From NCBI GenBank assembly GCA_030583745.1, contig CP129473.1:76551-140550 (forward strand): a DNA stretch of 64,000 nt, in the 5' to 3' direction. Positions 7,354-61,148 of the stretch are shown here, one piece after another. The translations under genes were made by a program, and so were the position numbers. The notes beneath the pieces are model-generated. The model saw only the letters and a program-made list of their open reading frames with translations. It had not been told where the DNA came from and did not search any database. This stretch comes from Minisyncoccota bacterium (GTDB lineage: Bacteria; Patescibacteriota; Minisyncoccia; Phycocordibacterales; BOKC01). Within the stretch, counting starts at the first letter, position 1. Each line of letters opens with the position of its first letter.

Positions 7354-8646
7354 TTAGCTCAAATTTTTCTTTACAAAATCTGCTATTTCTCCCACGCTTA
7401 AATCTGTTTCCTCTCCGCTTTCAAGATTTTTAACCTTAAATCTGTTTGATTTTATCTCATTTTCTCCGAGGCAGACAATGAAAGGTATTTTCTTTTTAGC
7501 TGCAGTTTTTATCTGGTCACCGGTTTTTTTGGTGGTTAAATCTACTGCTGAATTTATTCCTTGTTTTCTTAAATCTTGGGCAAGTCTATTTGCTTCATCA
7601 GTAAATTTCTGATCAAGTCGGCAAATATAGATTTGAGTCTGACTTCTGTAATCAGGAAGCAGGTTGTGGGTTTCTAGAAAATCAAGCAGGGTTACATCTC
7701 CGGCGCCAAAGCCCACTGCCGGTATGCTTGCCTCACCAAAAATTTGCAGAAGTTCGTCAAATCGTCCGCCACCAAATAGCGATCGGCTGTTTTTAGGATT
7801 GGTATCAAATATTTCAAAAATCGTGCCGGTGTAATAATCAAAACCTCGCATCAGATTTTGATTGAACTCAATGTTTTTGATTCCGAACTTGTATAGTCCG
7901 TCGATTAGTGCGGTCAATTCTTTGATTTCCGGACTTTGTTCCCCGAGTAGATCAATCATTTTTTTATTTGAATCCATGATCTCTATAAATCTTTCAGCTT
8001 TTTCTTGTAGTAGAGTTTCTGCTGCGGTTTTAAATTCGTTTTCCGAAATTTTGTCTCTTTTGTCTATAACTTTTGAGATTTTATATTTTTGTTCAGAATT
8101 AAGGCCGAGTTTTTCAAAAGTCATTTCGGCGACTTTTCTGTTATTGATGATTATTTTGAAATCCTCATCTTTGGCGCCAAGGTTTTTTAGAAGTGAGTAG
8201 GCCAGTATTAAAATTTCCAAATCGGCCTCTCTCGGCTCTCCACCAAAAATATCGACATTTAGTTGGAAGTGTTCTCTCAGGCGACCTCTTTGAGTATTTT
8301 CGTATCGGAAGAGGTTGGGGATTGAGTACCAGCGTAAGGGGAAAGCCAAATCCCTTTTTCTTTTTGCGACCATTCTGGCCAAAGTCGGCGTCATCTCTGG
8401 GCGCAGTGTTACCTCTCTTTCTCCACGGTCTAAAAAAGTATAGGTTTGCTCATTAACTATTTCTTCACCACTTTTGGCGCGATAGAGTTCGGCCGGCTCA
8501 AGAATCGAAGCCCCGTATTCTTCGTAGCCAAAACTTTCTACCGTTTCTCTCATTTTTTGGAAGAGGTATTTCTGAATAAATAAGTCCTCGGGATAAAAAT
8601 CCCGGACCCCTTTGTATGGTTCGGTGTTAACCATTTTTTTGCTCAT
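7354..8646 (-). CDS. hisS: histidyl-tRNA synthetase
   Basis: The protein aligns with HisRS throughout, including 'VRDFYPED' and the class II motifs 'TLRPEMTPTLARMVA' and 'GGGRFD'. Confidence 0.95.
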   Translation of the reverse strand: MSKKMVNTEPYKGVRDFYPEDLFIQKYLFQKMRETVESFGYEEYGASILEPAELYRAKSGEEIVNEQTYTFLDRGEREVTLRPEMTPTLARMVAKRKRDLAFPLRWYSIPNLFRYENTQRGRLREHFQLNVDIFGGEPREADLEILILAYSLLKNLGAKDEDFKIIINNRKVAEMTFEKLGLNSEQKYKISKVIDKRDKISENEFKTAAETLLQEKAERFIEIMDSNKKMIDLLGEQSPEIKELTALIDGLYKFGIKNIEFNQNLMRGFDYYTGTIFEIFDTNPKNSRSLFGGGRFDELLQIFGEASIPAVGFGAGDVTLLDFLETHNLLPDYRSQTQIYICRLDQKFTDEANRLAQDLRKQGINSAVDLTTKKTGDQIKTAAKKKIPFIVCLGENEIKSNRFKVKNLESGEETDLSVGEIADFVKKNLS

Positions 8647-8765
8647 TTGTCGTCTATAATATCACTTTGCCTATTTCCGGCAAATCGTTGATTATTGATT
8701 TATGGTATATAATTGTAGAATGTTTTAGTCATAGTTTTCGTTTTTTATTAGTTTTAATTTTTAAT

Positions 8766-9146
8766 ATGAGTATTATGAACATTGTTTTAAATTGGTTGAT
8801 TTCTGCCGTAATTATTCTGGCAATTGCTTATATTTTGCCGGGTGTTACAGTCGCCACTTTTTGGGTAGCTTTAGTCGTAGCTTTAGTTCTGGGCTTGATA
8901 AATGCTTTTATTAGGCCGATTGTTATTTTATTGACTCTGCCGATTAACATTCTGACTCTTGGGCTCTTTACTTTAGTCATAGACACCATTCTTGTTATCT
9001 TGGCAGCTTGGATTGTTGAGGGCTTTAGTATTGATAGTTTTTGGTGGGCGCTTGTCTTTGCGCTCGTGCTTTGGTTGGTTAATTCTTTTGTTAAAAAGAC
9101 CGCTAAAAATAAAGCCATAAGTTTTAACGACAATTCAGCTAAATAA
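8766..9146 (+). CDS. YvlD/phage-holin-4-like 4-TM membrane protein (DUF360-type)
   Basis: The hydrophobic 4-TM pattern 'WLISAVIILAIAYILPGVTV…FIRPIVILLTLPINILTLGLFTLVID' is present. An internal ATG at 8766 is preferred over the track start at 8667. Confidence 0.65.
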   Translation: MSIMNIVLNWLISAVIILAIAYILPGVTVATFWVALVVALVLGLINAFIRPIVILLTLPINILTLGLFTLVIDTILVILAAWIVEGFSIDSFWWALVFALVLWLVNSFVKKTAKNKAISFNDNSAK

Positions 9147-9555
9147 ATCTTCCCGCCTTAAGGTTTCGGTGGTAAGTATCTCTGTCATTAAATTTGAGTT
9201 TTGAAAGAGCCCCGCTGACGTGTTTACACGCCAGCGGGGCTCGAAGAAAGAGCTTGACAGCTACAGGCCGGCCGAAATTGTCCGGTCGTGCGGATCAATC
9301 CGCACTGTTCTAGACCTGTCTGGTCTTTTCGTTTTCTCTCCACCCCTGTTCTTAAGTCCCCCTTTCTTTTCCTCTCTCTTGCGGTCATTGGGCGGTTTGG
9401 ACTTTGTGCCGTCTTTTGCCTGGTCCACGAGTCGCTCCTTTCTTTTGTCGTCTTGTTTCCATCCTTGAATTTATAATTTAATTTTGGTTGTGTCCAGGAA
9501 AATTTCCACAGTTTTTTTCAACCTCCTATAAATTTTTTGTGATATTATTCATAAT

Positions 9556-10402: not shown

Positions 10403-11023
10403 TTGTCCGACTTTTGCCATTCTTTAGTAATGGAATTTGAATTTAAAGGTAAAACTCTGTCGTTTGATCCCAATAAGCCGAGAAACCGACCGGATTATTT
10501 GAAATGGATGTCTGACGAAGAGGTAAAAAAGTATCTGGATGGTCGTAAGTTGAATTTTGGCGTCTTAATAGCCAACCTTCTTTATGATAATAATGCTGGC
10601 AATATAATTCGTACCGCCAACGCTTTTGGGGCGAAAGAAATTATTCTCTACGGCCGGAAAAAATTTGATCGGCGGGCAAGTGTTGGCACCGAGTTTTATA
10701 TGAAGTTTAAGCACGTCAAATTTATTGAAGACTTGGATGAAATTTTTTCCGGCTACGACTTGGCGGTGGCGGCCGAAAACACGGAAGATTCAACGACGCT
10801 TAATGAATTTGAATGGGACGTTTCAAAAAAGACCTTACTTGTCTTTGGCCAAGAGAGCGATGGTATTCCTAAAGAAGTTTTGGAGAGGTGTGATTATAAA
10901 GTCCAAATTATCCAATTTGGTAGTGTCCGCTCACTTAACGTTTCAGTCGCCGCCGGAATAGTAATGCATGACTATTGCTTGAAAACCGGCGCACTCGATA
11001 AATTTAAAAAACAAACGTTCTAG
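10403..11023 (+). CDS. SpoU/TrmH-family RNA 2'-O-methyltransferase
   Basis: The SpoU motifs 'NAGNIIRTANAFG', 'LVFGQESDGIP' and 'QFGSVRSLNVSVAAGIVM' are present. Confidence 0.85.
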   Translation: MSDFCHSLVMEFEFKGKTLSFDPNKPRNRPDYLKWMSDEEVKKYLDGRKLNFGVLIANLLYDNNAGNIIRTANAFGAKEIILYGRKKFDRRASVGTEFYMKFKHVKFIEDLDEIFSGYDLAVAAENTEDSTTLNEFEWDVSKKTLLVFGQESDGIPKEVLERCDYKVQIIQFGSVRSLNVSVAAGIVMHDYCLKTGALDKFKKQTF

Positions 11024-11814
11024 AGAAAATTTGCGATTAAAAGCAAGATTCCGAAAAAGATAGCAAAATAACCAAAATTTATTTTTCTCGCTAGTCTAAG
11101 GAGTATGTCAATTGTCAGTATGCCGGCGAGAAAGGAGACGATGAGTGCAACAATGAGTTCTAAAGATACACTGAATGATCTAAAGTTTAAGAAAAGGTTG
11201 CCTAAAAAAACTATAGGTAAACTCAAAAGGAAACTCAAACGCAAAGCGGTTGTGTCATTAAATTTTTTCAAAAGCAGGGCGGAGACTGTCAATCCGGAGC
11301 GCGAAAGTCCCGGAACTACTGATAATCCTTGCATTATTCCCAAGGCAAGACCGTCCCAGATATTAAGATTTTTTTCTTCTTTCAGTCCGGTTTTTTTCGA
11401 GCTTAATTGTAAAGTTGCGGTTATAAAAAGCATCAGAGCGATTAGGGTATTTGCAAAGACACTGCCGAGCTTTAATTTTTCTTCAAACCTACCAATAAAT
11501 TGAAGTAGTAAAAATCCAAAAAGCCCGCTAACCAAGGTGGCTATAAAAATAAATCTAAAAATTTTACGGTCTTCTTCTGAAGATTCTTTCGGACGAAAGG
11601 CGGTTTTGGTCAGATTGAAAACATCTTTTCTGAAATAAACCAAGGCCGAAAGAAAAGTCCCGAAGTGTAAAAAGAGCGCCAACCTGATTAAGTCAACAAT
11701 AGTTTTATCTCCAGAAAAAAAATTGCTTTTTATAGCAACAATCAATCCTTCTGAGCTGATTGGGATCCATTCAGCTAGTCCTTGAGCTAGACCTAAAATA
11801 ACCGCTTCAAGCAT
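11020..11814 (-). CDS. uppP: undecaprenyl-diphosphatase UppP/BacA
   Basis: 'GLAQGLAEWIPISSEG' and 'PGLSRSGLTVSALLL' match the BacA signature. Confidence 0.9.
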   Translation of the reverse strand: MLEAVILGLAQGLAEWIPISSEGLIVAIKSNFFSGDKTIVDLIRLALFLHFGTFLSALVYFRKDVFNLTKTAFRPKESSEEDRKIFRFIFIATLVSGLFGFLLLQFIGRFEEKLKLGSVFANTLIALMLFITATLQLSSKKTGLKEEKNLNIWDGLALGIMQGLSVVPGLSRSGLTVSALLLKKFNDTTALRLSFLLSLPIVFLGNLFLNFRSFSVSLELIVALIVSFLAGILTIDILLRLARKINFGYFAIFFGILLLIANFL

Positions 11815-11903
11815 ACTTAAATTTTATCATAACTTTTTGCTGACTTTGCTTTAAATTACTCGTTTTGTTATAAATATGACAGACAAAGCACAAGGAGAAG
11901 AAG

Positions 11904-12404
11904 ATGCCGAATAGCGAAAATCTGATGGAAATCTTCGAAAGGCAGATAGGGGCTGGTTTCAGGTTTGTGGATAAGGTGGTTAAGATTGATAAGGATGAAG
12001 GAACTATAATCACAACATTCGACTACTCGCTTGAAGACGAATCCAAACACTTCCTGCGCGACCATTTTTTGGGTAGACCGGCCATGCCGCTTTCTCTCAT
12101 CATTGAGATGATGGCACAGACCTGCGGTTTGTTTGTTGCAGGTGTTCTCGGAAACGGCAAGTGTTTCGTTGTCCGTTATGACAAGTGTCAGTCCGGTAGC
12201 GAGCTCGTTACTCCGCCGGTTCAGCTAGTTATCACAGCGAATTTGTTGAAAAGGAGGGGGCGGGGCACTAGAAGCTTATGGATATTTGCCGTCAAGGTGG
12301 AAACTGATCAGGCGAAGAGTGTCGGCCAGGGCGAGATCACACTTTTCGCCGGAGTTGGTTCCTCGAGATCTTCGGAAGAGCTTCAAGACGAGATTCGAGA
12401 CTGA
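11904..12404 (+). CDS. FabZ/FabA-like hotdog-fold dehydratase
   Basis: 'FRFVDKVVKID…DHFLGRPAMPLSLIIEMMAQTCG' matches the FabZ active-site region 'HFPGxPVMPGVLxIEAMAQ'. Confidence 0.7.
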   Translation: MPNSENLMEIFERQIGAGFRFVDKVVKIDKDEGTIITTFDYSLEDESKHFLRDHFLGRPAMPLSLIIEMMAQTCGLFVAGVLGNGKCFVVRYDKCQSGSELVTPPVQLVITANLLKRRGRGTRSLWIFAVKVETDQAKSVGQGEITLFAGVGSSRSSEELQDEIRD

Positions 12405-12410
12405 AATCCC

Positions 12411-12445
12411 TCCCCGCGCCCACAAGGCGCGGGGATTTTGATTTT
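12411..12445 (+). terminator. intrinsic terminator after the FabZ-like gene
   Basis: The hairpin 'tccccgcgcc-cacaa-ggcgcgggga' is followed by 'ttttgatttt'. Confidence 0.7.
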
Positions 12446-12517
12446 ATATAGTCCCTCGGGGCAGAGCCACGAGGTAATGTCGGAATCCTCCGCCAGCTGG
12501 CGAACTACGTCACTTAT

Positions 12518-12760
12518 AAAAAGAAAAAGGCCCCACGCGCGACAGGATGACACGCGGGGGCCGGAGGGCTGGGCGGAAAGAAGGTAGAGGTTGGTTTGCG
12601 ATTCAGGAATCGCTCTAGAACGACTCAACCGTTTCGCTTTACCGCTACACCCGATCAATTTTTTTCATCGGGTGCCGGATTAACCGGAGGCGGCTCCTAT
12701 GGGGGACCGACCGCGACCTTTTTCCGCCCAAGCCCTAGGGAGGGTCTCTAATCTAATATT
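12518..12760 (-). ncRNA. candidate ~240-nt ncRNA (promoter to intrinsic terminator, no ORF)
   Basis: On the minus strand an extended -10 'TGTATAAT' lies at ~12768-12775 with 'TTGCTT' upstream. A GC-rich body follows with local hairpins (CCGGUUAAUCCGG, CCGAUGAAAAAAAUUGAUCGG, GAGCGAUUCCUGAAUCGC). It ends at a strong hairpin 'ggccccacgcgcgacagg…cgcgggggcc' plus a U-tract at 12518-12562. No family was recognised. Confidence 0.35.
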
Positions 12761-12828
12761 ATACATATCCTGTAAAAAAAGCAACTCCAGACTCTTTTTA
12801 AACCTCAATTAGTATCGATAGTAGGATT

Positions 12829-12936
12829 TCAGAAGAGCTGGAAAATCAACCATGCCAAGGAGTAAACAGTGGCACCTATGGCAAATCCGGTGATCTTCCG
12901 CCTGATGATTTCTGATGCACTGTGTGGGGCGTTCAT
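12829..12936 (-). CDS. small hydrophobic peptide (35 aa) with strong RBS
   Basis: 'AAGAGGAGAGAGAA-ATG' gives MNAPHSASEIIRRKITGFAIGATVYSLAWLIFQLF, which has one predicted TM segment. It is below the 60-aa ORF-track cutoff. Confidence 0.4.
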   Translation of the reverse strand: MNAPHSASEIIRRKITGFAIGATVYSLAWLIFQLF

Positions 12937-13010
12937 TTCTCTCTCCTCTTTTATTTAAGGATGTCTTTTGAAGAACACTTGCGATATTGTATTTGAAATA
13001 TTAAAAATTT

Positions 13011-13062
13011 CAAGAGAAAAACCCGCCATCGTGTGCGCCTACAAGTCGCGAGCGATGGCGGG
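13011..13062 (-). terminator. intrinsic terminator (minus strand)
   Basis: The stem 'cccgccatcg…cgatggcggg' is followed on the minus strand by 'tttttctcttg'. Confidence 0.55.
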
Positions 13063-13192
13063 TTAAAGGGACGGGCCGAAGAATTACACTGGCGGAAAGG
13101 GGGATAGACTGGGGTGTTTTTGTCTTCCCCCGCCGTATCGTAGTGGGGGTGGAACGATATTCCGCCAGATTCTTTCGGCCCCTGGTTCCTCT

Positions 13193-13531
13193 TTAGTCTT
13201 CGACGACCCTCCTGACGACTCCATCACAGACCAGCCACTGTTTCGGCAGGTTTCGGTCGTCGTATAGTTCATCAATCCGAACCACCAAGAGGCGGCTTTC
13301 ATCTGCTTTGAATTTGAAAACCGCTACACTGTTTGGTTCAGACGGGAAGTCTCGGCCGTGTTTTTTCTCGTATTCCGAGACGGCCGAAAATGCTGCAGTA
13401 GCACTGTTTTTGACTGTCGGACTCTTTTCGATGAGGTTGATACTTTGCCAGATGACGTGGCCCATTGCCAGTATCAAAATAACGACAATGACGATGTTTA
13501 TCACGATCGTCGGGTTAGATTTTCTTCGCAT
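13193..13531 (-). CDS. membrane-anchored hypothetical protein (112 aa)
   Basis: A strong RBS 'GGGAGGCAAAAATG' precedes the start. An N-terminal TM segment 'IVINIVIVVILILAMGHVIW' is followed by a soluble domain. Confidence 0.55.
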   Translation of the reverse strand: MRRKSNPTIVINIVIVVILILAMGHVIWQSINLIEKSPTVKNSATAAFSAVSEYEKKHGRDFPSEPNSVAVFKFKADESRLLVVRIDELYDDRNLPKQWLVCDGVVRRVVED

Positions 13532-13600
13532 TTTTGCCTCCCGTTCGTGTGTGTTTGTGTACAGAAATCTACACTCTTTATATCATTTTCTAGAAAAAAG

Positions 13601-13658
13601 AAAAACCCGTCCTGGCGGGTGGGCTGGGGGAGATGGGCAAGTGCCCGACCAGGACGGG
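13601..13658 (-). terminator. intrinsic terminator after the DUF167 gene
   Basis: A 10-bp stem 'cccgtcctgg/ccaggacggg' is followed on the minus strand by 'tttttcttttttc'. Confidence 0.55.
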
Positions 13659-13787
13659 TTGAAATGGGGGGCTACGAACCGGGGAGTTGGAATGGGCGAC
13701 ACAGTCGAATTAGTGTGTCGTTTTCCCACGGCGCCCCCTTTCTAAAGTGATAATAACAAATTATGTTTTAAAGACAAGTGGGGTGTG

Positions 13788-14066
13788 TCAGAAACTGATC
13801 AAGACAATTTTGTTTGGTTGGCGCTGACCTTTTGTAATTTTTAGCTTTCTTATAGGTAGGTTTAGATGTTCAGCAAGGAGAGCTAGCATTTTTTTGTTGG
13901 CCAAATTATTTTCCGGTTTTTCTCTGACAAAACACTGAAATCTGCCTTCTGAAATTTTTTCCAACTTGTCTTTTTTTGCGTTGGTGAAAACCTTTACTTT
14001 AAGATGCATATGTTCACATTTTAACTCAATTTTGATATTATCTTTTGGTTCTTTGATATAAAACAT
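13788..14066 (-). CDS. DUF167/YggU-family protein
   Basis: 'KVKVFTNAKKDKLE…NNLANKKMLALLAEHLNLPIRKLKITKGQRQPNKIVLI' matches the YggU pattern (…GKAN.ali.fla…v.iv.G…K.v.i). Confidence 0.75.
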   Translation of the reverse strand: MFYIKEPKDNIKIELKCEHMHLKVKVFTNAKKDKLEKISEGRFQCFVREKPENNLANKKMLALLAEHLNLPIRKLKITKGQRQPNKIVLISF

Positions 14067-14141
14067 TCCGGCGTAGCTCAGTGGTAGAGCAAGCGACTGT
14101 TAATCGCTGGGTCGTAGGTTCGAATCCTACCGCCGGAGCCA
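14066..14141 (+). tRNA. tRNA-Asn (GUU)
   Basis: It folds as a cloverleaf with acceptor UCCGGCG/CGCCGGA, D-arm GCUC…GAGC, anticodon stem AGCGA/UCGCU with loop CUGUUAA (GUU), T-arm GUAGG-UUCGAAU-CCUAC, discriminator G and an encoded CCA. Confidence 0.9.
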
Positions 14142-14180
14142 ATAATAAAATCCTTCCCTTTTTGGGAGGGATTTTATTAT
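14141..14180 (+). terminator. long hairpin immediately 3' of tRNA-Asn
   Basis: 'aataataaaatccttccc-ttttt-gggagggattttattatt' forms an ~18-bp stem. Confidence 0.6.
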
Positions 14181-14390
14181 TGGCTCCCGAATTAAAACCT
14201 TCGCAAACTTTTGAAATTATTTTGCCAAATTTGATACACAAATCCAAAAAGCGAAATCTGAAATGATGCGCCCCGCCACTATTTTTCTGGGGTAAAGGAG
14301 GCGGGGCGATGGACTCGCCCGCGCGGAGGAGGGGTCTGGGGAGGAATCCGCGCGGGCTTCGGCTTTCTTTTTCGAAAGAATTGGCGGCTA
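14180..14390 (+). repeat. inverted repeat copy A (211 bp)
   Basis: It is ~97% identical (7 mismatches) to the reverse complement of 16305-16514. The internal hairpin 'gcgccccgccac…ggcggggcg' is present. Confidence 0.9.
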
Positions 14391-14468
14391 CAAATTGAAG
14401 AAAGAAGAAATTCATGTTAGTATAGTTGTGAGGGTTAAGTTCAACGCTCATACTTATACTATCATACT

Positions 14469-14681
14469 ATGGAAAGTAAGAACAACAGACAAATTGGGGA
14501 TAAAATAAAAGCCATGCGCACAAAGCAAGGATTGACGCAAGACGCTCTTGCGAGAAAATGCGATATTCCCTATACAACACTGACAAAGATTGAATCAAAT
14601 GTGATAAAAAAACCCTCAATTCAAACAGTTACCAAGATTGCCGAGGGGTTAGGAATAAGTATTGACGATTTAATTAAATAA
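14469..14681 (+). CDS. XRE-family HTH transcriptional regulator
   Basis: 'IGDKIKAMRTKQGLTQDALARKCDIPYTTLTKIESN' is an HTH_3 helix-turn-helix. Confidence 0.85.
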   Translation: MESKNNRQIGDKIKAMRTKQGLTQDALARKCDIPYTTLTKIESNVIKKPSIQTVTKIAEGLGISIDDLIK

Positions 14682-14682
14682 C

Positions 14683-15282
14683 ATGAATTCAATTTGTATT
14701 TTTGGAGACAGTACCGCTTGGGGTGCTTGGGATATGAAGAAAGGTGGTTGGGCAAATCGTCTATGGCTTTACGCTGGTAAGAAAACTGATGGTGAATGCG
14801 AAATTTACAATTTAAGTATTTCTGGTGGCACAACAGAAACGATACTTGAAAGGTTTGAGTCCGAAGCGAAAATCCGCGAAGCGGACGCCCTCATTTTCCA
14901 GTCCGGCGGCAATGATTCCTATCTAAAAGGCAAGAATGGCCCCAATCAAATTCCAGTTGATCAATTTAGGAAAAATCTGCAGGAAATAATCAGGAAAGCC
15001 AAAAATATCACACCAAACATAATTTTCATCGGCTTCAAAAATGTTGACGAGACAAAAACAATGCCGGTCTCATGGAAAGATATTTACTACGTCAACGCCG
15101 AAATCAAAAAGTACGACGAGATTATGAAAGATGTTTGCAAAGAAAACAACATTCCGTACTTGGATATTTTTGGCCTTCTCAAAAATGAGGATTTTGAGGA
15201 TGGTCTTCACCCCAATACTTTAGGGCATAAGAAAATTTTTGAGAAAGTGAAAAACTTTCTTGAAGAAAATAAATGGATATGA
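14683..15282 (+). CDS. SGNH/GDSL hydrolase
   Basis: Block I 'ICIFGDSTAWG', block III 'SGGND' and block V 'DGLHPN' are present. Confidence 0.85.
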   Translation: MNSICIFGDSTAWGAWDMKKGGWANRLWLYAGKKTDGECEIYNLSISGGTTETILERFESEAKIREADALIFQSGGNDSYLKGKNGPNQIPVDQFRKNLQEIIRKAKNITPNIIFIGFKNVDETKTMPVSWKDIYYVNAEIKKYDEIMKDVCKENNIPYLDIFGLLKNEDFEDGLHPNTLGHKKIFEKVKNFLEENKWI

Positions 15283-15602
15283 ATACGAAGAATGTAAAAT
15301 TTGTAGTTTTTGTTCCGCTTTCGCACGCTGATATCGTACGACAAGCGCTCGGCAAAGCCGGAGCAGGCAAAATCGGCAACTATGACTTCTGCTCATTTTC
15401 TTCTCGCGGAATCGGCCGCTTTCGCGGAAACAAAAAGACAAACCCCGCTATCGGCGAGGCAGGAAAATATGAGGTGGTAGAGGAAGAACGAATTGAGGCA
15501 GTCGTGCCACGAGAGATTTTGGGGGGAGTCATTGAGAAAGTGAAAAGCGTCCACCCATACGAAGAAGTCGCTTTTGATATTTACCCGCTAGAAAACTACT
15601 AG
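15273..15602 (+). CDS. NIF3-like small protein (C-terminal 'HPYEEVAFDIYPLEN' motif)
   Basis: The 'VHPYEEVAFDIYPLEN' terminus is typical of NIF3/YqfO-family C-termini. The protein is only 109 aa. Confidence 0.5.
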   Translation: MDMNTKNVKFVVFVPLSHADIVRQALGKAGAGKIGNYDFCSFSSRGIGRFRGNKKTNPAIGEAGKYEVVEEERIEAVVPREILGGVIEKVKSVHPYEEVAFDIYPLENY

Positions 15603-15605
15603 ATT

Positions 15606-16307
15606 ATGGCAACAATTCACAAAAAAGTTTGGCGAGAATACTTTGAGAAAATTATTTCCGGCAAGAAAAAGCTGGAGTTGCGCCTTGCCGATTTTGAGAT
15701 AAACGAGGGTGATACTTTGATTTTGGAGGAATGGGACAAAGATAAAAAAGAATATACTGGCAGAAAATTTGAAGCTGTTGCTACCTATATTCTCAAAACC
15801 AAAGACCAAACTTTTTGGTCGCAGGAGGAAGTAGAAAAGCATGGTTTTCAGATTATCCAATTTGAGCCGAAAGACAGCCTTGCTCAACGTCCGAAAGTTG
15901 GTGTTGGCGTGATGATTTTGAAGGAAAATAAAATTTTGCTAGGAAAGCGAAAAGGTTCGCATGGCGAGGGCGAGTATGCCTTCCCCGGCGGCCATTTGGA
16001 ATACATGGAATCTTTTGCGGATTGTGCTCGGCGCGAAGTGAATGAGGAATGTGGAATTGAGATTGAAAATATCCATTTCCAATATTTGGCGAATATCATA
16101 AAGTACGCGCCGAAGCACTATACGCATATCGGTCTTGTGGCAGATTGGAAAAGCGGTGAGCCAAAAGTTTTAGAACCGGAAAAATCAGAATCGTGGGGTT
16201 GGTATGAAATAGACAACTTGCCTCTACCGATTTTTGAGATGTGCAAGTTGGCTGTTCAATGCCACAAGACCGGAAAGAATTATTTGGATGTTTCCGATTT
16301 GAAATAG
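15606..16307 (+). CDS. ASCH-domain / NUDIX hydrolase fusion protein
   Basis: The N-terminal ASCH-like part is 'KVWREYFEKIISGKKKLELR'. The C-terminal Nudix box is 'GGHLEYMESFADCARREVNEECGIE'. Confidence 0.8.
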   Translation: MATIHKKVWREYFEKIISGKKKLELRLADFEINEGDTLILEEWDKDKKEYTGRKFEAVATYILKTKDQTFWSQEEVEKHGFQIIQFEPKDSLAQRPKVGVGVMILKENKILLGKRKGSHGEGEYAFPGGHLEYMESFADCARREVNEECGIEIENIHFQYLANIIKYAPKHYTHIGLVADWKSGEPKVLEPEKSESWGWYEIDNLPLPIFEMCKLAVQCHKTGKNYLDVSDLK

Positions 16308-16514
16308 CCGCCAATTCTTTCGAAAAAGAAAGCCGAAGCCCGCGCGGATTCCTCCCCAGACCCCTCCTCCGCGCGGACAAGTCCGTCGCCCCGCCTCCTT
16401 TGCCCCAGAAAAATAGTGGCGGGGCGCATCATTTCAGATTTCGCTTTTTAGATTTGTGTATCAGATTTGGCAAAATGATTTCAAAAGTTTGCGAAGGTTT
16501 TAATTCGGGAGCCA
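16305..16514 (-). repeat. inverted repeat copy B (210 bp)
   Basis: It is the reverse complement of copy A. Its outer end 'aattcgggagccaa' mimics the tRNA-Asn 3' end. Confidence 0.9.
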
Positions 16515-16618
16515 AGAAACTAGATACGAACTCATTTTTTGAATATGAGAGTGTTCGCTCCGCCTTCGCTAAAGCTATGACGGACACGCCGTCTAGCCCC
16601 GAGAGTGGCGGGGCTGTT

Positions 16619-16836: not shown

Positions 16837-17241
16837 ATGACACGCAATAGAATCATCAACGCCCCGTCCAAGTTCGACCTCAGCATCGCCTTCTTCGATC
16901 GGCCAAATCCCGAGCAGCTCGGTGGCCGTCGGTCGGTGACCTTCACCATCGAGGGTCCCAGCTGTCCGAACGGCCAGCGCCAGATCGAAGTCGTCATCAA
17001 CCACATCTCGTGGGAAGACGGCTCCGGTGAGAGCTGGTGCTTCGAGGGATACTGTAAGACCGATGTCGGCCAGCCTCAAAACTCGACTGCCGAGGTCAAG
17101 GGTTGGTTCCGGACTTCGGACCGCAAGGGTTGGATCAACATCGACGCGTCTGCTCAAAGCAATACGAGCGGGACTGCTGGTCAGGGTGACTCTGGCCTTC
17201 GCAACGTGATCGATCAGATCGCCACGCAGCGGAATCAGTAA
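16837..17241 (+). CDS. GC-rich hypothetical protein (134 aa)
   Basis: The gene is ~58% GC with its own promoter, RBS and terminator. No family was recognised. Confidence 0.6.
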   Translation: MTRNRIINAPSKFDLSIAFFDRPNPEQLGGRRSVTFTIEGPSCPNGQRQIEVVINHISWEDGSGESWCFEGYCKTDVGQPQNSTAEVKGWFRTSDRKGWINIDASAQSNTSGTAGQGDSGLRNVIDQIATQRNQ

Positions 17242-17256
17242 GCGTTGAGAAATTCA

Positions 17257-17296
17257 GGGCGACCAAGGCAATAGCCAAGGTCGCCCTTTCTCTTTA
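17257..17296 (+). terminator. intrinsic terminator
   Basis: The stem 'agggcgacc…ggtcgccct' is followed by 'ttctcttt'. Confidence 0.65.
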
Positions 17297-17305
17297 TTTA
17301 TACTC

Positions 17306-17332
17306 GAGGCACAGCAAGGAAATTCCTTGATA
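17306..17332 (+). promoter_or_regulatory. 27-bp motif copy 2
   Basis: It is identical to 16619-16645. Confidence 0.6.
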
Positions 17333-17359
17333 CGCTGTTATTGGGATATTACGCATTAC

Positions 17360-17388
17360 TTGACAGTATTCGTATAGTATGCTAGCAT
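17360..17388 (+). promoter_or_regulatory. sigma-70 promoter (TTGACA-17-TAGCAT)
   Basis: It lies upstream of the 17432 gene. An RBS 'AAGGAAAGGAG' precedes the ATG. Confidence 0.55.
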
Positions 17389-17431
17389 CTATATTAGACA
17401 CAAACACTGCAACCAAGGAAAGGAGTGATAA

Positions 17432-17671
17432 ATGCGTAAGTTCACACTTCACTGTCTCGGCGGAAAGACCGAGGGAGTCGAAGGGACAGACATCGCCGAC
17501 GCTTGCCGTAGGGCTGGCATCGGTGCGGGAGACCTTCCTGCTCTCGACTACTTCGAGGAGAAGGGTGAGAAGACCCAGGTCGCTGGTGCATCCAGTTCCT
17601 GTGGGTGCTGGTATCACGCAGAAGAAGGAACTGCGTGCCAGCACGACCTCGAGGTGGTTGGGCTCAAGTAG
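17432..17671 (+). CDS. GC-rich Cys-containing small protein (79 aa)
   Basis: The gene is ~60% GC. The product has 6 Cys, including 'SSSCGCWYH'. It has its own promoter, RBS and terminator. Confidence 0.55.
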   Translation: MRKFTLHCLGGKTEGVEGTDIADACRRAGIGAGDLPALDYFEEKGEKTQVAGASSSCGCWYHAEEGTACQHDLEVVGLK

Positions 17672-17678
17672 CTCTCTC

Positions 17679-17728
17679 CGCCCCGACAAAGAGATTCGTC
17701 TCTGCGTCAGGGGCGGATTTCTTTTTAT
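17679..17728 (+). terminator. intrinsic terminator
   Basis: The stem 'ccgccccgac…gtcaggggcgg' is followed by 'atttctttttat'. Confidence 0.65.
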
Positions 17729-17898
17729 GGAATTAGTTCTGAAGAATAGCACTTAGAACCATCTCTAAAATCCCACTAAACTGCAATTCACTCTTTATCT
17801 TCCTCCAATTTGCAGTTCTGAACTTGTCCAGCAAGGGGAGCCATTACAAATCGAAGTAAAATGTCTTTTTATTTTCATTTTTGCTAATATAGATCAGT

Positions 17899-18759
17899 AT
17901 GAAAAAAACTATAATTATATTAATTTTAATTTTTATTATCGGCGGGATTTGGTGGCTCTTATCGAAAGAACAAAATCCATTACCAAGTTCATCTCAGACT
18001 TACTCATCGGAAGAATTTGTATTATCTTTTGAATATCCAAACGAGTATTTTATTAACGAGGTAAACATGGATACCGGCGAAAGAGAGAGGTATGCAATTG
18101 TGATATTTGAGGATAATCAATTTAATCGTGATTTGGTTGCTGGAAAAATCAAAGAAACTGATTCCCCGCCAACTATTACAATCAGTATTTTCCAGAATAA
18201 TCTGGACAACTACACCGCCAGGAGCTTTGTTGAAGGAACTAATTTCTCAAACTTTAAACTCTCTGACGGAAATATAGAAGAGATTAAAATCGCTGACGAA
18301 ACGGCATTAAAATATAAAGCTGACGGACTTTGGCAAAGTTATAATGCCGTAGTTGCCAGACCAGATTATGTCTATATGTTTACCGTCTTCTTTAACTCGC
18401 CTGAAGATAAACTGGTTTCAGTCTTTGAAGATCTCTTAAAGACAGTGGAATTTAGAACTGAAACTCCGACTTCGGCTGATAACGCCCCTCCGGGAAGCAT
18501 TCACAACTTACCACTACCAGAAGCTGTCTCTAAGGTAAAGAAGCTTGTTGCCGAAACTTATAATGTGGAGGAAGGGAAAGTCATTGTTATGACTGCATTT
18601 GAAAAAGAATGGACAGATTCCTGTCTCGGCCTTGGTGAAGCTCATGAAAGCTGTGCTCTAGTAATAACTCCGGGATATGAAGTGGCAGTCCAAGCTGGAG
18701 GAAAAAGTTACACCTATCGAACTGATATAAACGGAAGTCAGATAAGATTAGAGAAATAA
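17899..18759 (+). CDS. secreted/membrane-anchored protein with conserved 2-Cys C-terminal domain
   Basis: An N-terminal signal anchor is present. The C-terminal 'WTDSCLGLGEAHESCALVITPGYEVAVQAGGKSYTYRTDINGSQIR' is paralogous to the C-terminus of the 26293..26688 protein. Confidence 0.7.
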   Translation: MKKTIIILILIFIIGGIWWLLSKEQNPLPSSSQTYSSEEFVLSFEYPNEYFINEVNMDTGERERYAIVIFEDNQFNRDLVAGKIKETDSPPTITISIFQNNLDNYTARSFVEGTNFSNFKLSDGNIEEIKIADETALKYKADGLWQSYNAVVARPDYVYMFTVFFNSPEDKLVSVFEDLLKTVEFRTETPTSADNAPPGSIHNLPLPEAVSKVKKLVAETYNVEEGKVIVMTAFEKEWTDSCLGLGEAHESCALVITPGYEVAVQAGGKSYTYRTDINGSQIRLEK

Positions 18760-19126
18760 AGTTTTGTCTCGTCCTATCCCAGCGCTAATCCGCCAGCTGG
18801 CGGAACGGGCATAGGACGAGACATCAGGGAAAACTTTGTTGCAGAAGTGTCGGCTCCGCCGACTCTTTGCACGACTCGCCTCCTCATCCCCGTGCTTTTA
18901 GCACGGGGATGAGGAGGCGAACTACAATAAAAAACTTGCTTAATTTTTCAAATAATTTTAAAAATCTTAAACTTCTCAATCTCTCTTTTGATCTTCCTCT
19001 AGGTTGCAGTTTTCCTTCAATAAATTCAGGATAAAATAACTCATCTAAGCACAGGATCAAGCCAAAACAAAAGCGCCTTTCCAGCGCTTTTGTTTTGGCA
19101 GAATTGTAATTTATTTTAAGTTTTTT

Positions 19127-19375
19127 CTACCTTCGTATTGCTTTAACAATCCAAATAAGGACGACTGCGCCGAGAAGCGCTACGAGAAAACTGTAGATAT
19201 TGAAGCCACCTACGCCAGTTTCTCCAAAAAGACTCATAAGCCAACCGCCGATAACTGCACCAACAATACCAACAACCACGTTGAGGATGATGCCTTGTTG
19301 AGCATCGGTTTTCATAATAAGAGATGCGATCCAGCCGACAAGCCCGCCAAATACAATCCAGAGAATAATTCCCAT
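19127..19375 (-). CDS. GlsB/YeaQ/YmgE-family transglycosylase-associated membrane protein
   Basis: '[20 protein letters not shown]…[11 protein letters not shown]' is the typical repeat of this family. Confidence 0.8.
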
Positions 19376-33226: not shown

Positions 33227-33700
33227 TTAAGCCGAGATCCCTCGGTTCTGTCCTCGGATCAGACCCAGAAGGAATCGGGTTGAGAATAACCCGATTCCCC
33301 AGACCGTGCCGACGACCGGCAATGCCGTAAGCCACATAACCCAGAACGGCTCCTTAGCTCCTTCGTCCTTGGCGGTGCTGGAGGCGACAGCAGTCATGAG
33401 GGCAACGAGGACGAGGAGGGAGACGGTGGAGACCACACTGGAGGTTGCGGTGCGGAGGGCGAGAACGGCGATTGCGGTGGCACAGGCGGCGAAGGCGGCG
33501 GGGATGATGAGGGCGAAGACGCGAGAAGTGAAGGCGCAGGAGACGAAGGCGGCGGCGAAGAGGGCGAAGGCGGCGGCGAGGGCGGCGAGGGCGGCGGAGG
33601 TAGAGGCAGTTCTGAAATCGCCGGTAATGGCGTATACGCCGCCTCCTACGATACACTGAAGGCCGAGTACGAACGTCGTATAGATCCACAGCTTCTTCAT
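33227..33700 (-). CDS. GC-rich (~65%) Ala-rich multi-TM membrane protein
   Basis: The RBS 'GGGAGAACGAA-ATG' gives MKKLWIYTTFVLGL… Its composition is atypical for this genome. Confidence 0.5.
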   Translation of the reverse strand: MKKLWIYTTFVLGLQCIVGGGVYAITGDFRTASTSAALAALAAAFALFAAAFVSCAFTSRVFALIIPAAFAACATAIAVLALRTATSSVVSTVSLLVLVALMTAVASSTAKDEGAKEPFWVMWLTALPVVGTVWGIGLFSTRFLLGLIRGQNRGISA

Positions 33701-33859
33701 TTCGTTCTCCCTTTCTTTTTTTATCATTGCCGAAATCACATGATTTCGGAAAATTTTCCACTTAAGATTCTAATAGATGTTATCCATGTTGTCAAATTTA
33801 ATTTTGTAAAAATTTATGACCCGAAGTTTGAAATTTGAAATCAAAAATCTCAAACAAAA

Positions 33860-51919: not shown

Positions 51920-53221
51920 ATGAAAGATTTTCTTAAAAAAACCATTGTTCATCTTATTACTTTTGAATCTAAGCTGATAATCAAAAAATATCAGCCGAAG
52001 ATTGTTGCTATCACCGGCAGTGTCGGCAAAACCGGCACCAAAGATGCAGTTCACGCTCTTTTTTCTAAATTGTTCTATGCCGAAAAAAGTCCAAAAAGTT
52101 TTAACAGCGAAGTTGGGATTCCACTTTCAATTATCGGTGGCCAAAAAAGTGGGTGGAGAAATCCGCTATCTTGGCTTAAGGTTGTTTTGGACGGCTTATT
52201 TTTAATTATTTTACCAAATCATTATCCGAGGTGGCTAATTCTCGAGGTTGGGGCTGACAGGCCGGGAGACATAGAGGAAATTTCAAATTGGCTGAAAACT
52301 GACGTTGCGATCTTCACCAGAATGAGCGAAGTGCCGGTTCACGTTGAGTTTTTTGATTCACCGCAATCAGTCTTAAAAGAAAAAATGTTTTTGTTAAAAT
52401 CTCTTAGGTCGGAGCAGGGCGTTGCAGTTTACAATTACGATGATGAAATTATAAGAAGGGAGATTGAGGACAGAAAAGAATTGACCAAGTTGTCTTATGG
52501 TTTTGACAAAAAAGCCAGAGTCTCTGCTTCAAACTATGCAATTATTTATGATAGAAAAACTGGTTTTCCTTCGGGTATAAATTTCAAAATTAATTTTGAT
52601 GGTTCAAGTGTACCAGCCACGATTTACGACACAGTTGGCCGTCAGCAAGTTTATGCTGTCTTGGCCGGGGTTACGGCCATTTTGTCTCAAGGTGGTAATC
52701 CAGTAAAAGCAATTGAAGGTCTTCTTGATTATAGAAGTCAGCCGGGCCGAATGAAGATTTTAGAAGGTGTAAAAAATTCTCTTATTATTGACGATAGCTA
52801 CAATTCTTCTCCGGTTGCCCTGTTTGAATCGCTTGATACTTTGAAATCTATCAAGTGCGCTGGAAGAAAAATTGTAATTTTGGGCGATATGATGGAGATA
52901 GGACGCTATTCAATTGACGAACATAAAAAAGCCGGAGCTTTAGTGGCCGAGTTTGCCGATTTTATTTTTACTGTTGGTGTTCGAGCAAAATGCATCAATG
53001 ATGGCGCTTTAGAAAGGGGGTTTTCGCCTGAAAAAATTTTTAATTTTGGCGATTCCAGAGAAGCCGGAAAACAAGTGGAAATTATGGTTCAGCCAGGCGA
53101 CATCGTCTTAGTAAAAGGTTCACAATCAGCTAGAATGGAGCGGGCAGTTGAAGAAATCATGAATGATCCGATGAAAAAAGAAGAACTTTTGGTAAGGCAA
53201 GAACAAAGCTGGCGTTTCTGA
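51920..53221 (+). CDS. murF: Mur ligase, probably UDP-MurNAc-pentapeptide synthetase MurF
   Basis: The P-loop 'ITGSVGKTGTKD' and Mur ligase middle and C-terminal domains are present. The 433-aa size and its position after ftsI also fit. Confidence 0.7.
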   Translation: MKDFLKKTIVHLITFESKLIIKKYQPKIVAITGSVGKTGTKDAVHALFSKLFYAEKSPKSFNSEVGIPLSIIGGQKSGWRNPLSWLKVVLDGLFLIILPNHYPRWLILEVGADRPGDIEEISNWLKTDVAIFTRMSEVPVHVEFFDSPQSVLKEKMFLLKSLRSEQGVAVYNYDDEIIRREIEDRKELTKLSYGFDKKARVSASNYAIIYDRKTGFPSGINFKINFDGSSVPATIYDTVGRQQVYAVLAGVTAILSQGGNPVKAIEGLLDYRSQPGRMKILEGVKNSLIIDDSYNSSPVALFESLDTLKSIKCAGRKIVILGDMMEIGRYSIDEHKKAGALVAEFADFIFTVGVRAKCINDGALERGFSPEKIFNFGDSREAGKQVEIMVQPGDIVLVKGSQSARMERAVEEIMNDPMKKEELLVRQEQSWRF

Positions 53222-53359
53222 TAAAAATTTTTGTTTAAGATGTGGTTTGCTAGTTGGCAAAGAGAGAAAAAGAGAAGGTTACTTTTTCATTCCCTCGCCA
53301 TACAGCGCGCCTTCGGCGCGCCCAGATTTTGCGCTTACTTCCGACCAAGTTTCTGAATG

Positions 53360-53603
53360 TGACGATATTATAGCCTTTGCTCGAACCTATTTCGAGTCAA
53401 AGACCGACTGACTTCGCACGCGCGGAGCGCGTGGTGGCTTGGAACTACATCGTACGCTCCGATCGCGTGGTGATGCCAACTCATGCTGCCAGCGCCTCGA
53501 CAAGCTCGGCGCTCCGCCCTCGCCCCGTTTCCGCTCTCCATGCTTTTTCTTTTTTCGCGGGGGGATTTTTTTAAAAATTGAATGGGCGGAAAACGGGGCT
53601 CGG
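53360..53603 (+). repeat. inverted repeat IR244 left copy
   Basis: It is 100% identical to the reverse complement of 59256-59498. The track ORFs 53377..53574 (+) and 59284..59481 (-) give identical 65-aa translations. Confidence 0.9.
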
Positions 53604-53604
53604 T

Positions 53605-54260
53605 CGGGCTTCACCTAAAAGGGTGAAGCGTGGCGTCATTCGTTCAGTGGTGCCTCGGATCTATTCTATCAATTTTGCGTTCATGGCTAAAGGGACGGCA
53701 CCCTCGGCATCCACCTCGGGCTATTTCCGCTAGGGCTACGAGCGCCTAGATGCCTAGGAGTGTCGCTTTTCCTCGCAAGTGCGCCTTGCTAGGCGCTTGC
53801 TCGGGCGACACGCAGTTTGGGGGAAGGAAGGAATCCTTCCCCCAGCTTCGGGCTCCTCCTCGCAGTGGTCGTTCGGAGTGTACGGTGCCGTACAGATAAC
53901 AAGGTACGTCGTGAGTTTCTCTCTCGCTTTGACGTGCCTTCGGAGTCCGCCTTCGCACAACCCCCATCCTCGTTTTCAATATTTCTTTCGTGGTGTCGCT
54001 TCCGCTACGATACTTTGTTTTGCAATATAACGTCGGCGCTCGTCCTTTAGCCCTGGACGCTCCTAGCGGAAATAGCCCGAGGGCTCTGCCTTATGTGCTT
54101 GCCCCAGGCCGTGTTAGTACACGGCTCCCACCCGTGCGCGCACAAACCCCGCCCGCAAGCGGGCGGGACTCCCTGCAAAATGCAAGTGCCCTCGGGAGGA
54201 TTCGAACCTCCAAGATCGGGGTAGAGGCCCGACAGTTTATCCATTAGCTTACGAGGGCAA
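53605..54260. ncRNA. candidate large structured RNA (GC-rich, ORF-free, extensive self-complementarity); identity unknown
   Basis: The region is ~58% GC. The long-range pair 'cctcgggctatttccgctagg' (53722-53742) faces its reverse complement at 54061-54081. Many local hairpins are present (gggggaagg…ccttccccc, gtacggtgccgtac, cccgcccgcaagcgggcggg). The strand of transcription is uncertain. Confidence 0.35.
54185..54256 (-). other. tRNA-like element (T-arm GGAGG-UUCGAAU-CCUCC and 7-bp acceptor GCCCUCG/CGAGGGC; irregular D/anticodon arms; no CCA)
   Basis: On the minus strand it reads 'gccctcgtaagctaatggataaactgtcgggcctctaccccgatcttggaggttcgaatcctcccgagggca'. The anticodon stem 'ucggg/cccga' has loop 'ccucuac' (C at position 33). 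The D-arm is poorly paired, so it is likely a pseudo-tRNA or a structural mimic. Confidence 0.4.
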
Positions 54261-54345
54261 AGAGAAAGAAGCGCATAAATGCGCTGGGGGAATTCTTTAT
54301 CTTCTGTGCCTCGTATTAAACATTACTGTTTACATTAACATTTTT

Positions 54346-54373
54346 TTGAAAAAATAAAAACAAGAGTTATAAT
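54346..54373 (+). promoter_or_regulatory. sigma-70 promoter (TTGAAA-16-TATAAT)
   Basis: It lies upstream of a ~170-nt GC-rich leader that precedes the YjzC-like ORF. Confidence 0.5.
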
Positions 54374-54544
54374 TCAACAATTGAAGTCCTTTGAAATGCT
54401 GGCGGGATAGTCGGAGCGCCCTTTTCTGCATCTTAGGGGATCATCTCACCTCCTCCCCCCTGGTCAGTGCTTTTTCGAGCATTGACTCGGGGGCGCGTAG
54501 CAGGTCGAGCCCCTGGATTACCAGAATTAAGCGAAACGATTGTT

Positions 54545-54706
54545 ATGACTAAAGTCAAAACAGGCGGTACTGCTAAAAAATCTGGACAGTATAGAGTCGA
54601 GGGTACAAAAACCCTCGAGATTACATTGTCTAGAGGCGATCGCGTTCCACCTCATGGAGGAAAGGCGAGAACCTTTGTGCTCGTTGATAAGACGAAACAC
54701 AAATAG
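54545..54706 (+). CDS. YjzC-like small protein (53 aa)
   Basis: 'VKTGGTAKKSGQYRVEGTKTLEITLSRGDRVPPHGGKARTFVLVDK' follows the YjzC pattern (K.G..AP..G.Y.e.G…i.L..GD.fP…..W). The start is at the internal ATG and the RBS is weak. Confidence 0.4.
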   Translation: MTKVKTGGTAKKSGQYRVEGTKTLEITLSRGDRVPPHGGKARTFVLVDKTKHK

Positions 54707-61092: not shown

Positions 61093-61148
61093 ACCCGAGT
61101 TTTCGCCTTGAGAAGGCGACGTCCTAGACCAGACTAGACGATAGGGCC
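61074..61148 (-). tRNA. tRNA-Glu (CUC)
   Basis: On the minus strand it reads GGCCCUA-UC-GUC…GAC-G-UCGCC-UUCUCAA-GGCGA-AAAC-UCGGG-UUCAAAU-CCCGA-UAGGGUC-A. Acceptor stem is 7 bp (one G·U), D-stem 3 bp. Anticodon loop is UUCUCAA, giving anticodon CUC. No CCA is encoded. Confidence 0.75.

Follow-up and report, generated by a model that had tools for sequence, protein, structure and literature searches.

What is encoded in the 1.4 kb of GC-rich DNA at positions 12405-13790 of a 64,000-nucleotide stretch of bacterial contig CP129473.1 (hereafter the window), between the genes for a weakly FabA/FabZ-like protein and a DUF167 protein? The original prediction described a stretch poor in open reading frames (ORFs), with one promoter-to-terminator non-coding RNA (ncRNA) beside two small genes. 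The core of that description stands, the RNA being our unit A, but it is not the sole RNA of the locus: two further structured units, B and C, had been overlooked. Read along the minus strand, the layout is C–[112 aa]–B–[35 aa]–A, three predicted RNA modules interleaved with two very small genes. We favour, at a probability of about 0.45, its interpretation as a compact row of small minus-strand transcription units, consisting of stand-alone regulatory small RNAs and two small genes. GC content is elevated as described, at 0.45-0.58 across 12300-13800 against a window mean of 0.406 (40.6%), but ORFs are not scarce throughout, since the 112-aa gene fills a quarter of the stretch; units B and C account for the rest of its GC-rich sequence. 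The predicted features, in their order along the minus strand, are as follows.

13747-13777, minus strand: promoter of unit C, from a consensus scan (-35 TTGTCT at 13777-13772, 16-nt spacer, extended -10 TGtTATTAT)
13593-13742, minus strand: unit C, a candidate small RNA of ~150 nt (fold, covariation, orthologues)
13193-13531, minus strand: 112-aa gene (ribosome-binding site (RBS) GGGAGG within 13529-13542; extended -10 TGATATAAA at 13585-13577)
13012-13189, minus strand: unit B, a structured element in the 3' untranslated region (3'UTR) of the 112-aa gene (fold, match to covariance model R1)
12986-13013, minus strand: promoter of the 35-aa gene, TTGAAA-16-TACAAT (10/12 in the consensus scan)
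12829-12936, minus strand: gene for the 35-aa peptide, MNAPHSASEIIRRKITGFAIGATVYSLAWLIFQLF (ORF conserved; RBS at 12939-12949)
12756-12784, minus strand: sigma-70-type promoter of unit A (-35 TTGCTT at 12784-12779, 17-nt spacer, -10 TAATAT at 12761-12756)
12516-12749, minus strand: unit A, a candidate multi-helix ncRNA of ~230 nt (fold, strand-specific G·U pairs, relatives)
12516-12562, minus strand: intrinsic terminator of unit A (GC-rich hairpin 12562-12529 and U-tract 12528-12516)

The locus was compared with a set of close relatives whose contigs are collinear with the window (L001, L003-L008, L022/23, L033 and L034). Homologues of the FabA-like and 112-aa proteins obtained by protein search are all at least 82% identical, and a metagenome scan added two near-identical loci. 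For the neighbouring BacA (undecaprenyl-diphosphatase), identity falls directly from 99% to 65%; two loci at 64-65% retain the neighbourhood, L010 ('Ca. Paceibacter'), found through a BacA genome scan, and L024, found among the BacA homologues, and loci at 62% identity or less lack synteny. The order in L010 is unit C, a 113-aa homologue of the 112-aa protein, a B-like element, a 39-aa hydrophobic peptide gene that has a terminator to itself, a hairpin RNA of 77 nt having both promoter and terminator, FabA-like and BacA. In L024 it is tRNA-Asn, DUF167, unit C, a 34-aa peptide gene with terminator, a GC-rich unit of ~230 nt (fold z -5.6) and BacA, the 112-aa gene and the B element both being absent. 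The 34-aa and 39-aa peptides thereby hold the position of the 35-aa gene, and both of these distant lineages have an RNA unit with promoter and terminator at the position of A. In all three lineages a promoter of the form TTGnnT-16/17-TATnAT lies ~7 nt before the start of each RNA unit. Fold z-scores, here and below, are relative to dinucleotide shuffles; their background median is -0.75 (150 windows across 8-20 kb, a 12-kb scan).

Unit C is the best conserved of the modules. It begins GAAAGGGGG and is predicted to fold (z -5.5, 13590-13750) into helices P1 and P2 and hairpin P3, with an internal loop CCAUUCCAAC, a CGUA junction and, at 13660-13604, a terminator with the C-rich loop CAUCUCCCCCAGCCCACC. 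Its promoter elements CTTG…TTTGnTATnAT, including the extended -10, are invariant in the three lineages and stand at a fixed distance from GAAAGGGG; the general form TTGnnT-16-TGnTATnAT is thus conserved between lineages with BacA identity of only 64-65%. Covariance model R1, built from six close C sequences only, recovers the unit in both distant lineages (E 3e-6 in L024 and 7.5e-6 in L010). The comparison for covariation that had been proposed with the original prediction is clearest here: in the alignment of eight C orthologues, pairing holds in 96% of cells and double changes are seen at 14 of the 41 pairs, against 40-51% paired and 0-3 double-change pairs in slid controls. Outside the terminator, 9/24 pairs of P1-P3 covary. 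A 48-aa ORF lying over the unit was ruled out by the lengths of its copies, 140-148 nt among close relatives. We consider it very likely, on this evidence, that C is a real RNA gene. Both C and A have a predicted promoter, a predicted terminator and no conserved ORF, as would be expected of stand-alone small RNAs; covariation argues for the structure of C and does so weakly for that of A.

Unit B, which lacks a promoter of its own, begins 4 nt past the stop codon of the 112-aa gene; it is closed by a terminator whose hairpin spans 13064-13020 and whose U-tract runs to 13012. Its fold z is -6.4 (13010-13195). The terminators of B and C share the form AACCCG…CGGGUUUUUCU; B has two hairpins extra to C, one of them with the loop UCCACCCCCACU, and the loop and junction sequences of the two units are not shared. 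R1 matches B over its full length (13017-13188, E 1.2e-4, 29.9 bits) and in four relatives at E 1e-4 to 4e-3, the L010 and L004 copies being marginal (0.06-0.08). No further R1 match was found in the rest of the window, in 13 other loci or in 700 kb of unrelated viral DNA. Aligned locally without the model, B and C match at p=0.008, and addition of the B copies to the C alignment raises the pairs with double changes to 23/41. B is probably a diverged paralogue of C, and only probably, because the alignments concerned (A9 and A10) are fitted to the model and covariance-model E-values are rough. The best-conserved module is C, not A, and the best-supported family C/B. In a motif scan of viral contigs, 76 matches to the unit C motif proved to be chance occurrences (0 covariance-model matches), and the unit A motif had no match.

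Unit A has CCCUCCC in its 5' tail, at 12744-12738. Its long closing helix, P1, pairs 12735-12716 with 12585-12566 and encloses an inner helix P2 and two branched domains; a linker, CCCUCCGG, joins these helices to the terminator. Minimum free energy (MFE) and consensus folds are both multi-branched, with three hairpin domains inside P1 and P2, and the 261-nt stretch folds at -110 kcal/mol (z -6.2, 200 shuffles). The hairpins and the lack of an ORF proposed earlier are thus borne out: there is no conserved ORF in the unit, whose loops carry 1-4-nt indels among close relatives, and hidden coding by an overlapping 91-aa ORF was rejected when indels of that size were seen to break it in relatives. 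The strong intrinsic terminator, likewise proposed, was found as a hairpin at 12529-12562 with its U-tract at 12516-12528, 100% identical across relatives apart from one C→U change yielding G·U. For the promoter, the extended -10 of the original prediction, TGTATAAT, does exist on the minus strand, at 12765→12758 and not at ~12768, overlapping our promoter; the conserved element is TTGCTT-17-TAATAT. TAATAT and the -35 are constant in all close relatives, whereas the alternative TATAAT reads TCTAAT in L004, L006 and L008. Promoters of the same type precede the syntenic A-position units of L024 and L010.

Among eight sequences, an RNAalifold consensus of unit A has 75 pairs. It includes one compensatory pair (G-C→A-U), three C→U changes giving G·U, and six G·U pairs that never vary and that would read A·C on the plus strand. 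Because neither the G·U pairs nor the C→U changes would be compatible with pairing on the plus strand, the substitution pattern sets the strand of the unit as minus, and it moderately supports the fold. Substitutions and indels amount to ~16 events, of which 8 lie at unpaired positions, 4 preserve pairing and 3 are disruptive; the events that disrupt P1 are three in number, affecting a terminal pair, producing one G·A mismatch and inserting 4 nt. In the distant lineages, the 3' 85 nt of A (the 3' strands of P2 and P1, the linker and the terminator) align to the entire 77-nt RNA of L010 (p<0.002), and the 3' block of the L024 unit can be aligned with the P1-linker-terminator block (p=0.006). 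A covariance model of unit A, R2, matches the A-position unit of L010 (E 2e-3) and also, weakly, unit C through the closing helix and terminator (E 1.5e-3 in L024, 0.64 in the window), which hints that A may be a distant relative of the C/B module. We think it likely that A is a real RNA gene. Its plasticity fits poorly with a housekeeping RNA and suits a fast-evolving regulatory one.

The two small genes forecast earlier are both upheld. The 35-aa peptide, described as hydrophobic, has a polar N-terminus followed by a C-terminal hydrophobic helix, and its strong RBS reads AGAGGAGAGAG. Over the last 28 codons, synonymous differences equal or exceed non-synonymous ones in each of five relatives (4:1, 3:1, 2:1, 1:1 and 0:0, L034 showing no differences), and N-terminal indels of the ORF are in frame among close relatives. 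The -35 of its promoter abuts the U-tract of unit B; the promoter is invariant in close relatives, and a counterpart, TTGTAT-17-TACAAT, lies at the same place in L024. The membrane-anchored 112-aa gene, with its GGGAGG RBS, has homologues 82-93% identical and the L010 homologue, 37% identical with the same architecture of an N-terminal transmembrane helix and a small helix/β-strand domain. An AlphaFold2 model of this protein is poor (pLDDT 57), with helices at 7-36 and 43-58 and four short strands, and is too weak for a structure search. Neither protein belongs to a family in Pfam, NCBIfam or PHROGs, nor the 112-aa protein to one in PADLOC, which was run on the 112-aa and FabA-like proteins. 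Sequence comparison indicates that both genes are real and under purifying selection. Each had been credited with a terminator of its own. None that is convincing was found for the 35-aa gene in this lineage (z +0.9), and that of the 112-aa gene turns out to be part of a 175-nt structured element paralogous to C. As the 35-aa gene has no convincing terminator, its transcript is expected to run on into unit A, which in this lineage is probably reached by such read-through as well as from its own promoter.

How might these RNAs act? A, B and C would be regulatory small RNAs working through C-rich, G-poor unpaired segments. In A these are the CCCUCCC of the 5' tail and a loop sequence, CCCCCAUA; B has UCCACCCCCACU, and C has CCAUUCCAAC and CUCCCCC. 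Such segments would mimic the anti-Shine-Dalgarno sequence and could pair in trans with GGAGG-type ribosome-binding sites, so repressing translation. Local ribosome-binding sites are of the GGAGG type. Unpaired C outnumbers unpaired G by 20 to 5 in both A and B and by 23 to 2 in C. Predicted single strands contain CCUCC, CUCCC and CCCCC: in A these motifs fall in the 5' tail and one loop, in B in a hairpin loop and in C in both the internal and the terminator loop. Pairing of C-rich loops with Shine-Dalgarno sequences is the mode of action of RsaE/RoxS of Firmicutes, the 6C RNA of Actinobacteria and the 'toxic small RNA' of Burkholderia. Our units resemble these RNAs in size (~100-230 nt), in having their own promoter and terminator and in exposing unpaired CCUCC, CUCCCC and CCCCC on GC-rich hairpins; unlike them, they show no sequence or covariance-model membership of those families, and unit A is far larger and more branched. 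Unit B, for its part, recalls small RNAs embedded in 3'UTRs, sharing the terminator of the 112-aa gene and lacking a promoter, with C as a free-standing paralogue. It departs from 3'UTR small RNAs that have sibling copies in its two extra hairpins and in loops that differ from those of C. The trans-acting anti-Shine-Dalgarno mechanism is the one that we favour, though we regard it as tentative and somewhat doubtful.

Several observations, besides the model-fitted alignments and rough E-values mentioned above, count against the interpretation that we favour. Pairing of A, B and C with the initiation regions of adjacent genes does not exceed that of shuffles in any lineage, in either duplex energy or longest run. 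C-rich unpaired segments are partly expected in GC-rich folds, and the L024 unit A'' shows no C excess. For A, covariation support is weak, there being a single truly compensatory pair; the promoter fails the consensus scan, with a weak -35 matching at 3/6 positions; and the interior is specific to each lineage, reduced to a 77-nt unit in L010 and replaced by a different three-way junction in L024. The unit is 95-99% identical among close relatives, and so are the flanking genes (95-99%); its near-invariance was accordingly rejected as a sign of constraint, flanking genes being 98-99% identical.

Could the units instead be familiar RNAs? The original prediction had pointed to an Rfam search for 6S, SRP, RNase P, tmRNA and riboswitches, and this search matched no such family. 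At gathering thresholds Rfam 15 yields three tRNAs only in the whole 64 kb; at E≤10 with relaxed filters, none of those five classes is found in 12300-14500, nor anything credible on A, B or C; the L010 and L024 loci have no family match at E≤1; and ARAGORN detects no tmRNA. The only trace in Rfam comes from the unit C terminator, which scores an insignificant 15 bits against 50 (E 8) with the toxic-sRNA model. A, B and C therefore match no catalogued Rfam family and are candidates for new regulatory RNAs, of a familiar kind rather than a new type of system. That unit A might be a housekeeping RNA (6S, SRP, RNase P or tmRNA) so divergent as to lie beyond the Rfam models is suggested by its ~190-nt core, long closing helix and GC-richness, all within the range of 6S, and by a short resemblance to conserved region I of RNase P (GGAAA…CAUAG), seen by eye in the window and in L024. 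The latter was discarded for want of model support. Since relaxed searches of all three loci found none of these families, ARAGORN no tmRNA, since A is multi-branched rather than a 6S-like rod with a central bubble, and since shrinkage to 77 nt in L010 and an altered interior in L024 would misfit an essential conserved RNA, we judge this highly improbable.

A cis-acting role is easier to entertain. The modules could be 5' leaders of the attenuator or riboswitch type, in which a sensor and a terminator govern read-through into a small membrane-protein gene 45-80 nt downstream; the pairs meant are C→112-aa and B→35-aa in the window and C→34-aa in L024. The succession of promoter, structured domain, terminator, RBS and ORF does resemble that of attenuating leaders, every C-family module lies just upstream of a same-strand small membrane-protein gene, B lacks its own promoter, no good promoter separates B from the 39-aa gene in L010, and the A-position unit of L024 lies upstream of BacA on the same strand. 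In the window, however, A is followed by the convergent FabA-like gene, with no same-strand gene downstream, and so is not a leader. Conserved promoters, moreover, stand between the terminators and the ORFs (TGnTATAAA/TGnTATACT for the 112/113-aa gene and TACAAT for the peptide); because both genes keep their own promoters downstream of the module terminators, this supports their being separate transcription units. MFE folding of nascent C, B and L024-C predicts no antiterminator, sensor and terminator folding independently; loop and junction sequences differ between B and C; and no known aptamer class is matched. We therefore think a leader function rather unlikely. The small membrane peptide raises a further possibility, a type I toxin–antitoxin-like module in which the 35-aa peptide would be a membrane toxin and a flanking small RNA its antitoxin. 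As at the Fst/RNAII, TisB/IstR-1 and Zor/Orz loci, a conserved hydrophobic-helix peptide of 34-39 aa lies beside small RNA genes in three lineages, and the region is more divergent than its flanks, with gene presence and absence, as is often so at such loci; the L024 peptide alone gives a faint, non-significant match to the Fst model (E 0.22, 11.4 bits against a cut-off of 26). Those systems differ in their antisense or trans complementarity. Here all units are co-directional, no antisense promoter or terminator lies across the peptide gene, complementarity of A, B and C to the peptide mRNA is not above shuffles in any lineage, and no toxin family reaches threshold; such a module is improbable.

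A different kind of explanation dispenses with RNA function: the modules would be terminator or mRNA-stabilising hairpins, or repeats like repetitive extragenic palindromic (REP) elements, serving as recombination substrates for the gain and loss of small genes. B and C are same-strand direct repeats bracketing exactly the gene that L024 lacks, and the single L024 element is flanked upstream as C is and downstream as B is, a mosaic to be expected from deletion between direct repeats or from insertion with duplication. The interior of A is highly plastic across lineages, and other GC-rich repeats are present in the window. Against this, a mere terminator has no need of the invariant extended -10 promoter of C, the non-terminator helices of C covary, and the C family numbers only two copies in 64 kb, with no member in any of 13 other Patescibacteria-type loci. 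A recombination relic would explain the difference in gene content but not the promoter or the covarying helices, and we hold this explanation to be unlikely. Integron attC cassettes are comparable in so far as divergent structured elements surround small ORFs in one orientation and one ORF is present or absent by lineage; unlike attC sites, the units have no RYYYAAC/GTTRRRY boxes and no extrahelical bases. The attC interpretation was rejected by inspection, the stems AACCCGUCCUGG/CCAGGACGGGUU and AACCCGCCAUCG/CGAUGGCGGGUU being perfect, GC-rich and followed by U-tracts, as in intrinsic terminators. No integron or tyrosine integrase was found among ten scanned ORFs (10403-16307) or the relatives' genes called within 6 kb. 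It is also conceivable, if quite unlikely, that A, B and C are diverged copies of one undescribed cis module (closing helix, variable interior, C-rich linker or loop, terminator) that brackets mini-genes in Paceibacteria, as a new leader class controlling those genes or as cassette boundaries; the latter idea arises because the 112-aa gene sits between two copies and is absent where one copy remains. The row of regulatory small RNAs and small genes is still the interpretation that we prefer.

Beyond unit A lies one further feature.

12405-12515, no strand assigned: spacer separating the terminator of the FabA-like gene from the convergent one of unit A (sequence, relatives)

The FabA-like terminator hairpin occupies 12411-12435 on the plus strand. 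About 77 nt of the spacer (12436-12517), holding the palindrome CGCCAGCTGGCG (12491-12502) and a second hairpin, are present in the window and L001 and probably, from aligned 3' tails, in L023, L033 and L034; they are absent from L003, L004, L006 and L008. The palindrome does recur in the window as had been reported, against 0 occurrences in shuffles, but for the second copy position 18813 has to be corrected to 18791. A long hairpin at 18766-18824 is capped by a similar palindrome context, AATCCGCCAGCTGGCGGAAC.

Structured GC-rich sequence is found elsewhere too. On the minus strand, several intergenic or ambiguous-ORF segments of 17200-17760 and 18720-19200 have fold z-scores of -4.7 to -8.6, and strongly structured GC-rich islands appear to be a general trait of this AT-rich genome. 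A GC-rich segment at 9121-9360 (minus strand; fold z ~-5, with a terminator) follows a tiny basic ORF, METRRQKKGATRGPGKRRHKVQTAQ; it falls outside the C/B family and matches R2 only at E 0.33. The GC peak of the window (74%, 33227-33739, minus strand) is not RNA: it is a 170-aa ORF for an Ala/Gly-rich membrane protein, with internal GCG/GCC repeats and its own RBS and terminator.

The genes around 12405-13790 are those for HisRS, a holin-like protein, bPH_2, a SpoU methylase, BacA, the FabA/FabZ-like protein and DUF167, with tRNA-Asn. Right after tRNA-Asn begins a 214-nt inverted repeat (14177-14390 and 16305-16518, 96% identical) flanking ~1.9 kb with an HTH_3 regulator, a GDSL lipase, a 109-aa ORF and a NUDIX/ASCH protein, genes that differ in L001. 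On the minus strand for the left-hand copy and on the plus strand for the right-hand one, each arm has two GC-clamped hairpins with C-rich loops, CCUCCCC, CCCCUCCUCC and CCUCCUUUACCCC. In L003 a serine recombinase and other inserted genes stand beside DUF167 (8129-9370). In L010, just upstream of unit C, a GC-rich inverted repeat of ~80 nt (30-110 and 1015-1110) surrounds ~900 bp with two small ORFs. The neighbourhood of the cluster is an insertion hotspot in several lineages.

Further along the window (54751-56238, minus strand) is a 495-aa reverse transcriptase (Pfam RVT_1, E 8e-22), which in PADLOC matches the defence-associated class RT_UG17 best (E 3.9e-39); next to it are encoded a LexA-S24/C5-methylase fusion (56346-57914) and a protein of 349 aa without a family (57907-58956). 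Downstream of it on the same strand, adjoining tRNA-Arg, lie ~600 nt at GC 0.62-0.67 without ORFs (53600-54186 and 54400-54520), with a long-range stem pairing 53716 with 54056. No Rfam match was found there at E≤0.1 (53200-54700 searched); this could be a reverse-transcriptase-associated RNA or another large structured RNA. A 257-nt inverted repeat (53347-53603/59255-59511) flanks 5.65 kb with the reverse transcriptase, the methylase and tRNA-Arg. Its interpretation as the template and variable repeats (TR/VR) of a diversity-generating retroelement was rejected, the inner 246 nt being identical and mismatches confined to the outer edge. An 89-nt inverted repeat (59490-59578/60994-61082, 98%) surrounds the gene for a large serine recombinase (59605-61092), its right arm overlapping tRNA-Glu (61073-61148), and this segment may be an invertible or integrative element.

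The closest named relatives of BacA are from 'Candidatus Paceibacter sp.' and from Patescibacteria/Parcubacteria metagenome-assembled genomes, and on that account the host is placed in the candidate phyla radiation (CPR), among the Paceibacteria. Sequencing runs that have yielded assemblies of it include DRR258781, SRR33548586, SRR22385480 and SRR23332757. CPR bacteria have small genomes and few classical regulators, and to our knowledge their non-coding RNAs are almost uncharacterised. The payoff is limited, the family having been seen in only three narrow lineages and its function being one that we infer. What the locus yields is a new RNA family, C/B, supported by covariation and with a conserved promoter, together with the larger structured RNA A, all with defined ends. 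If the proposed mechanism is true, the action of C-rich loops on ribosome-binding sites, a mechanism of Firmicutes and Actinobacteria, would extend to Patescibacteria.

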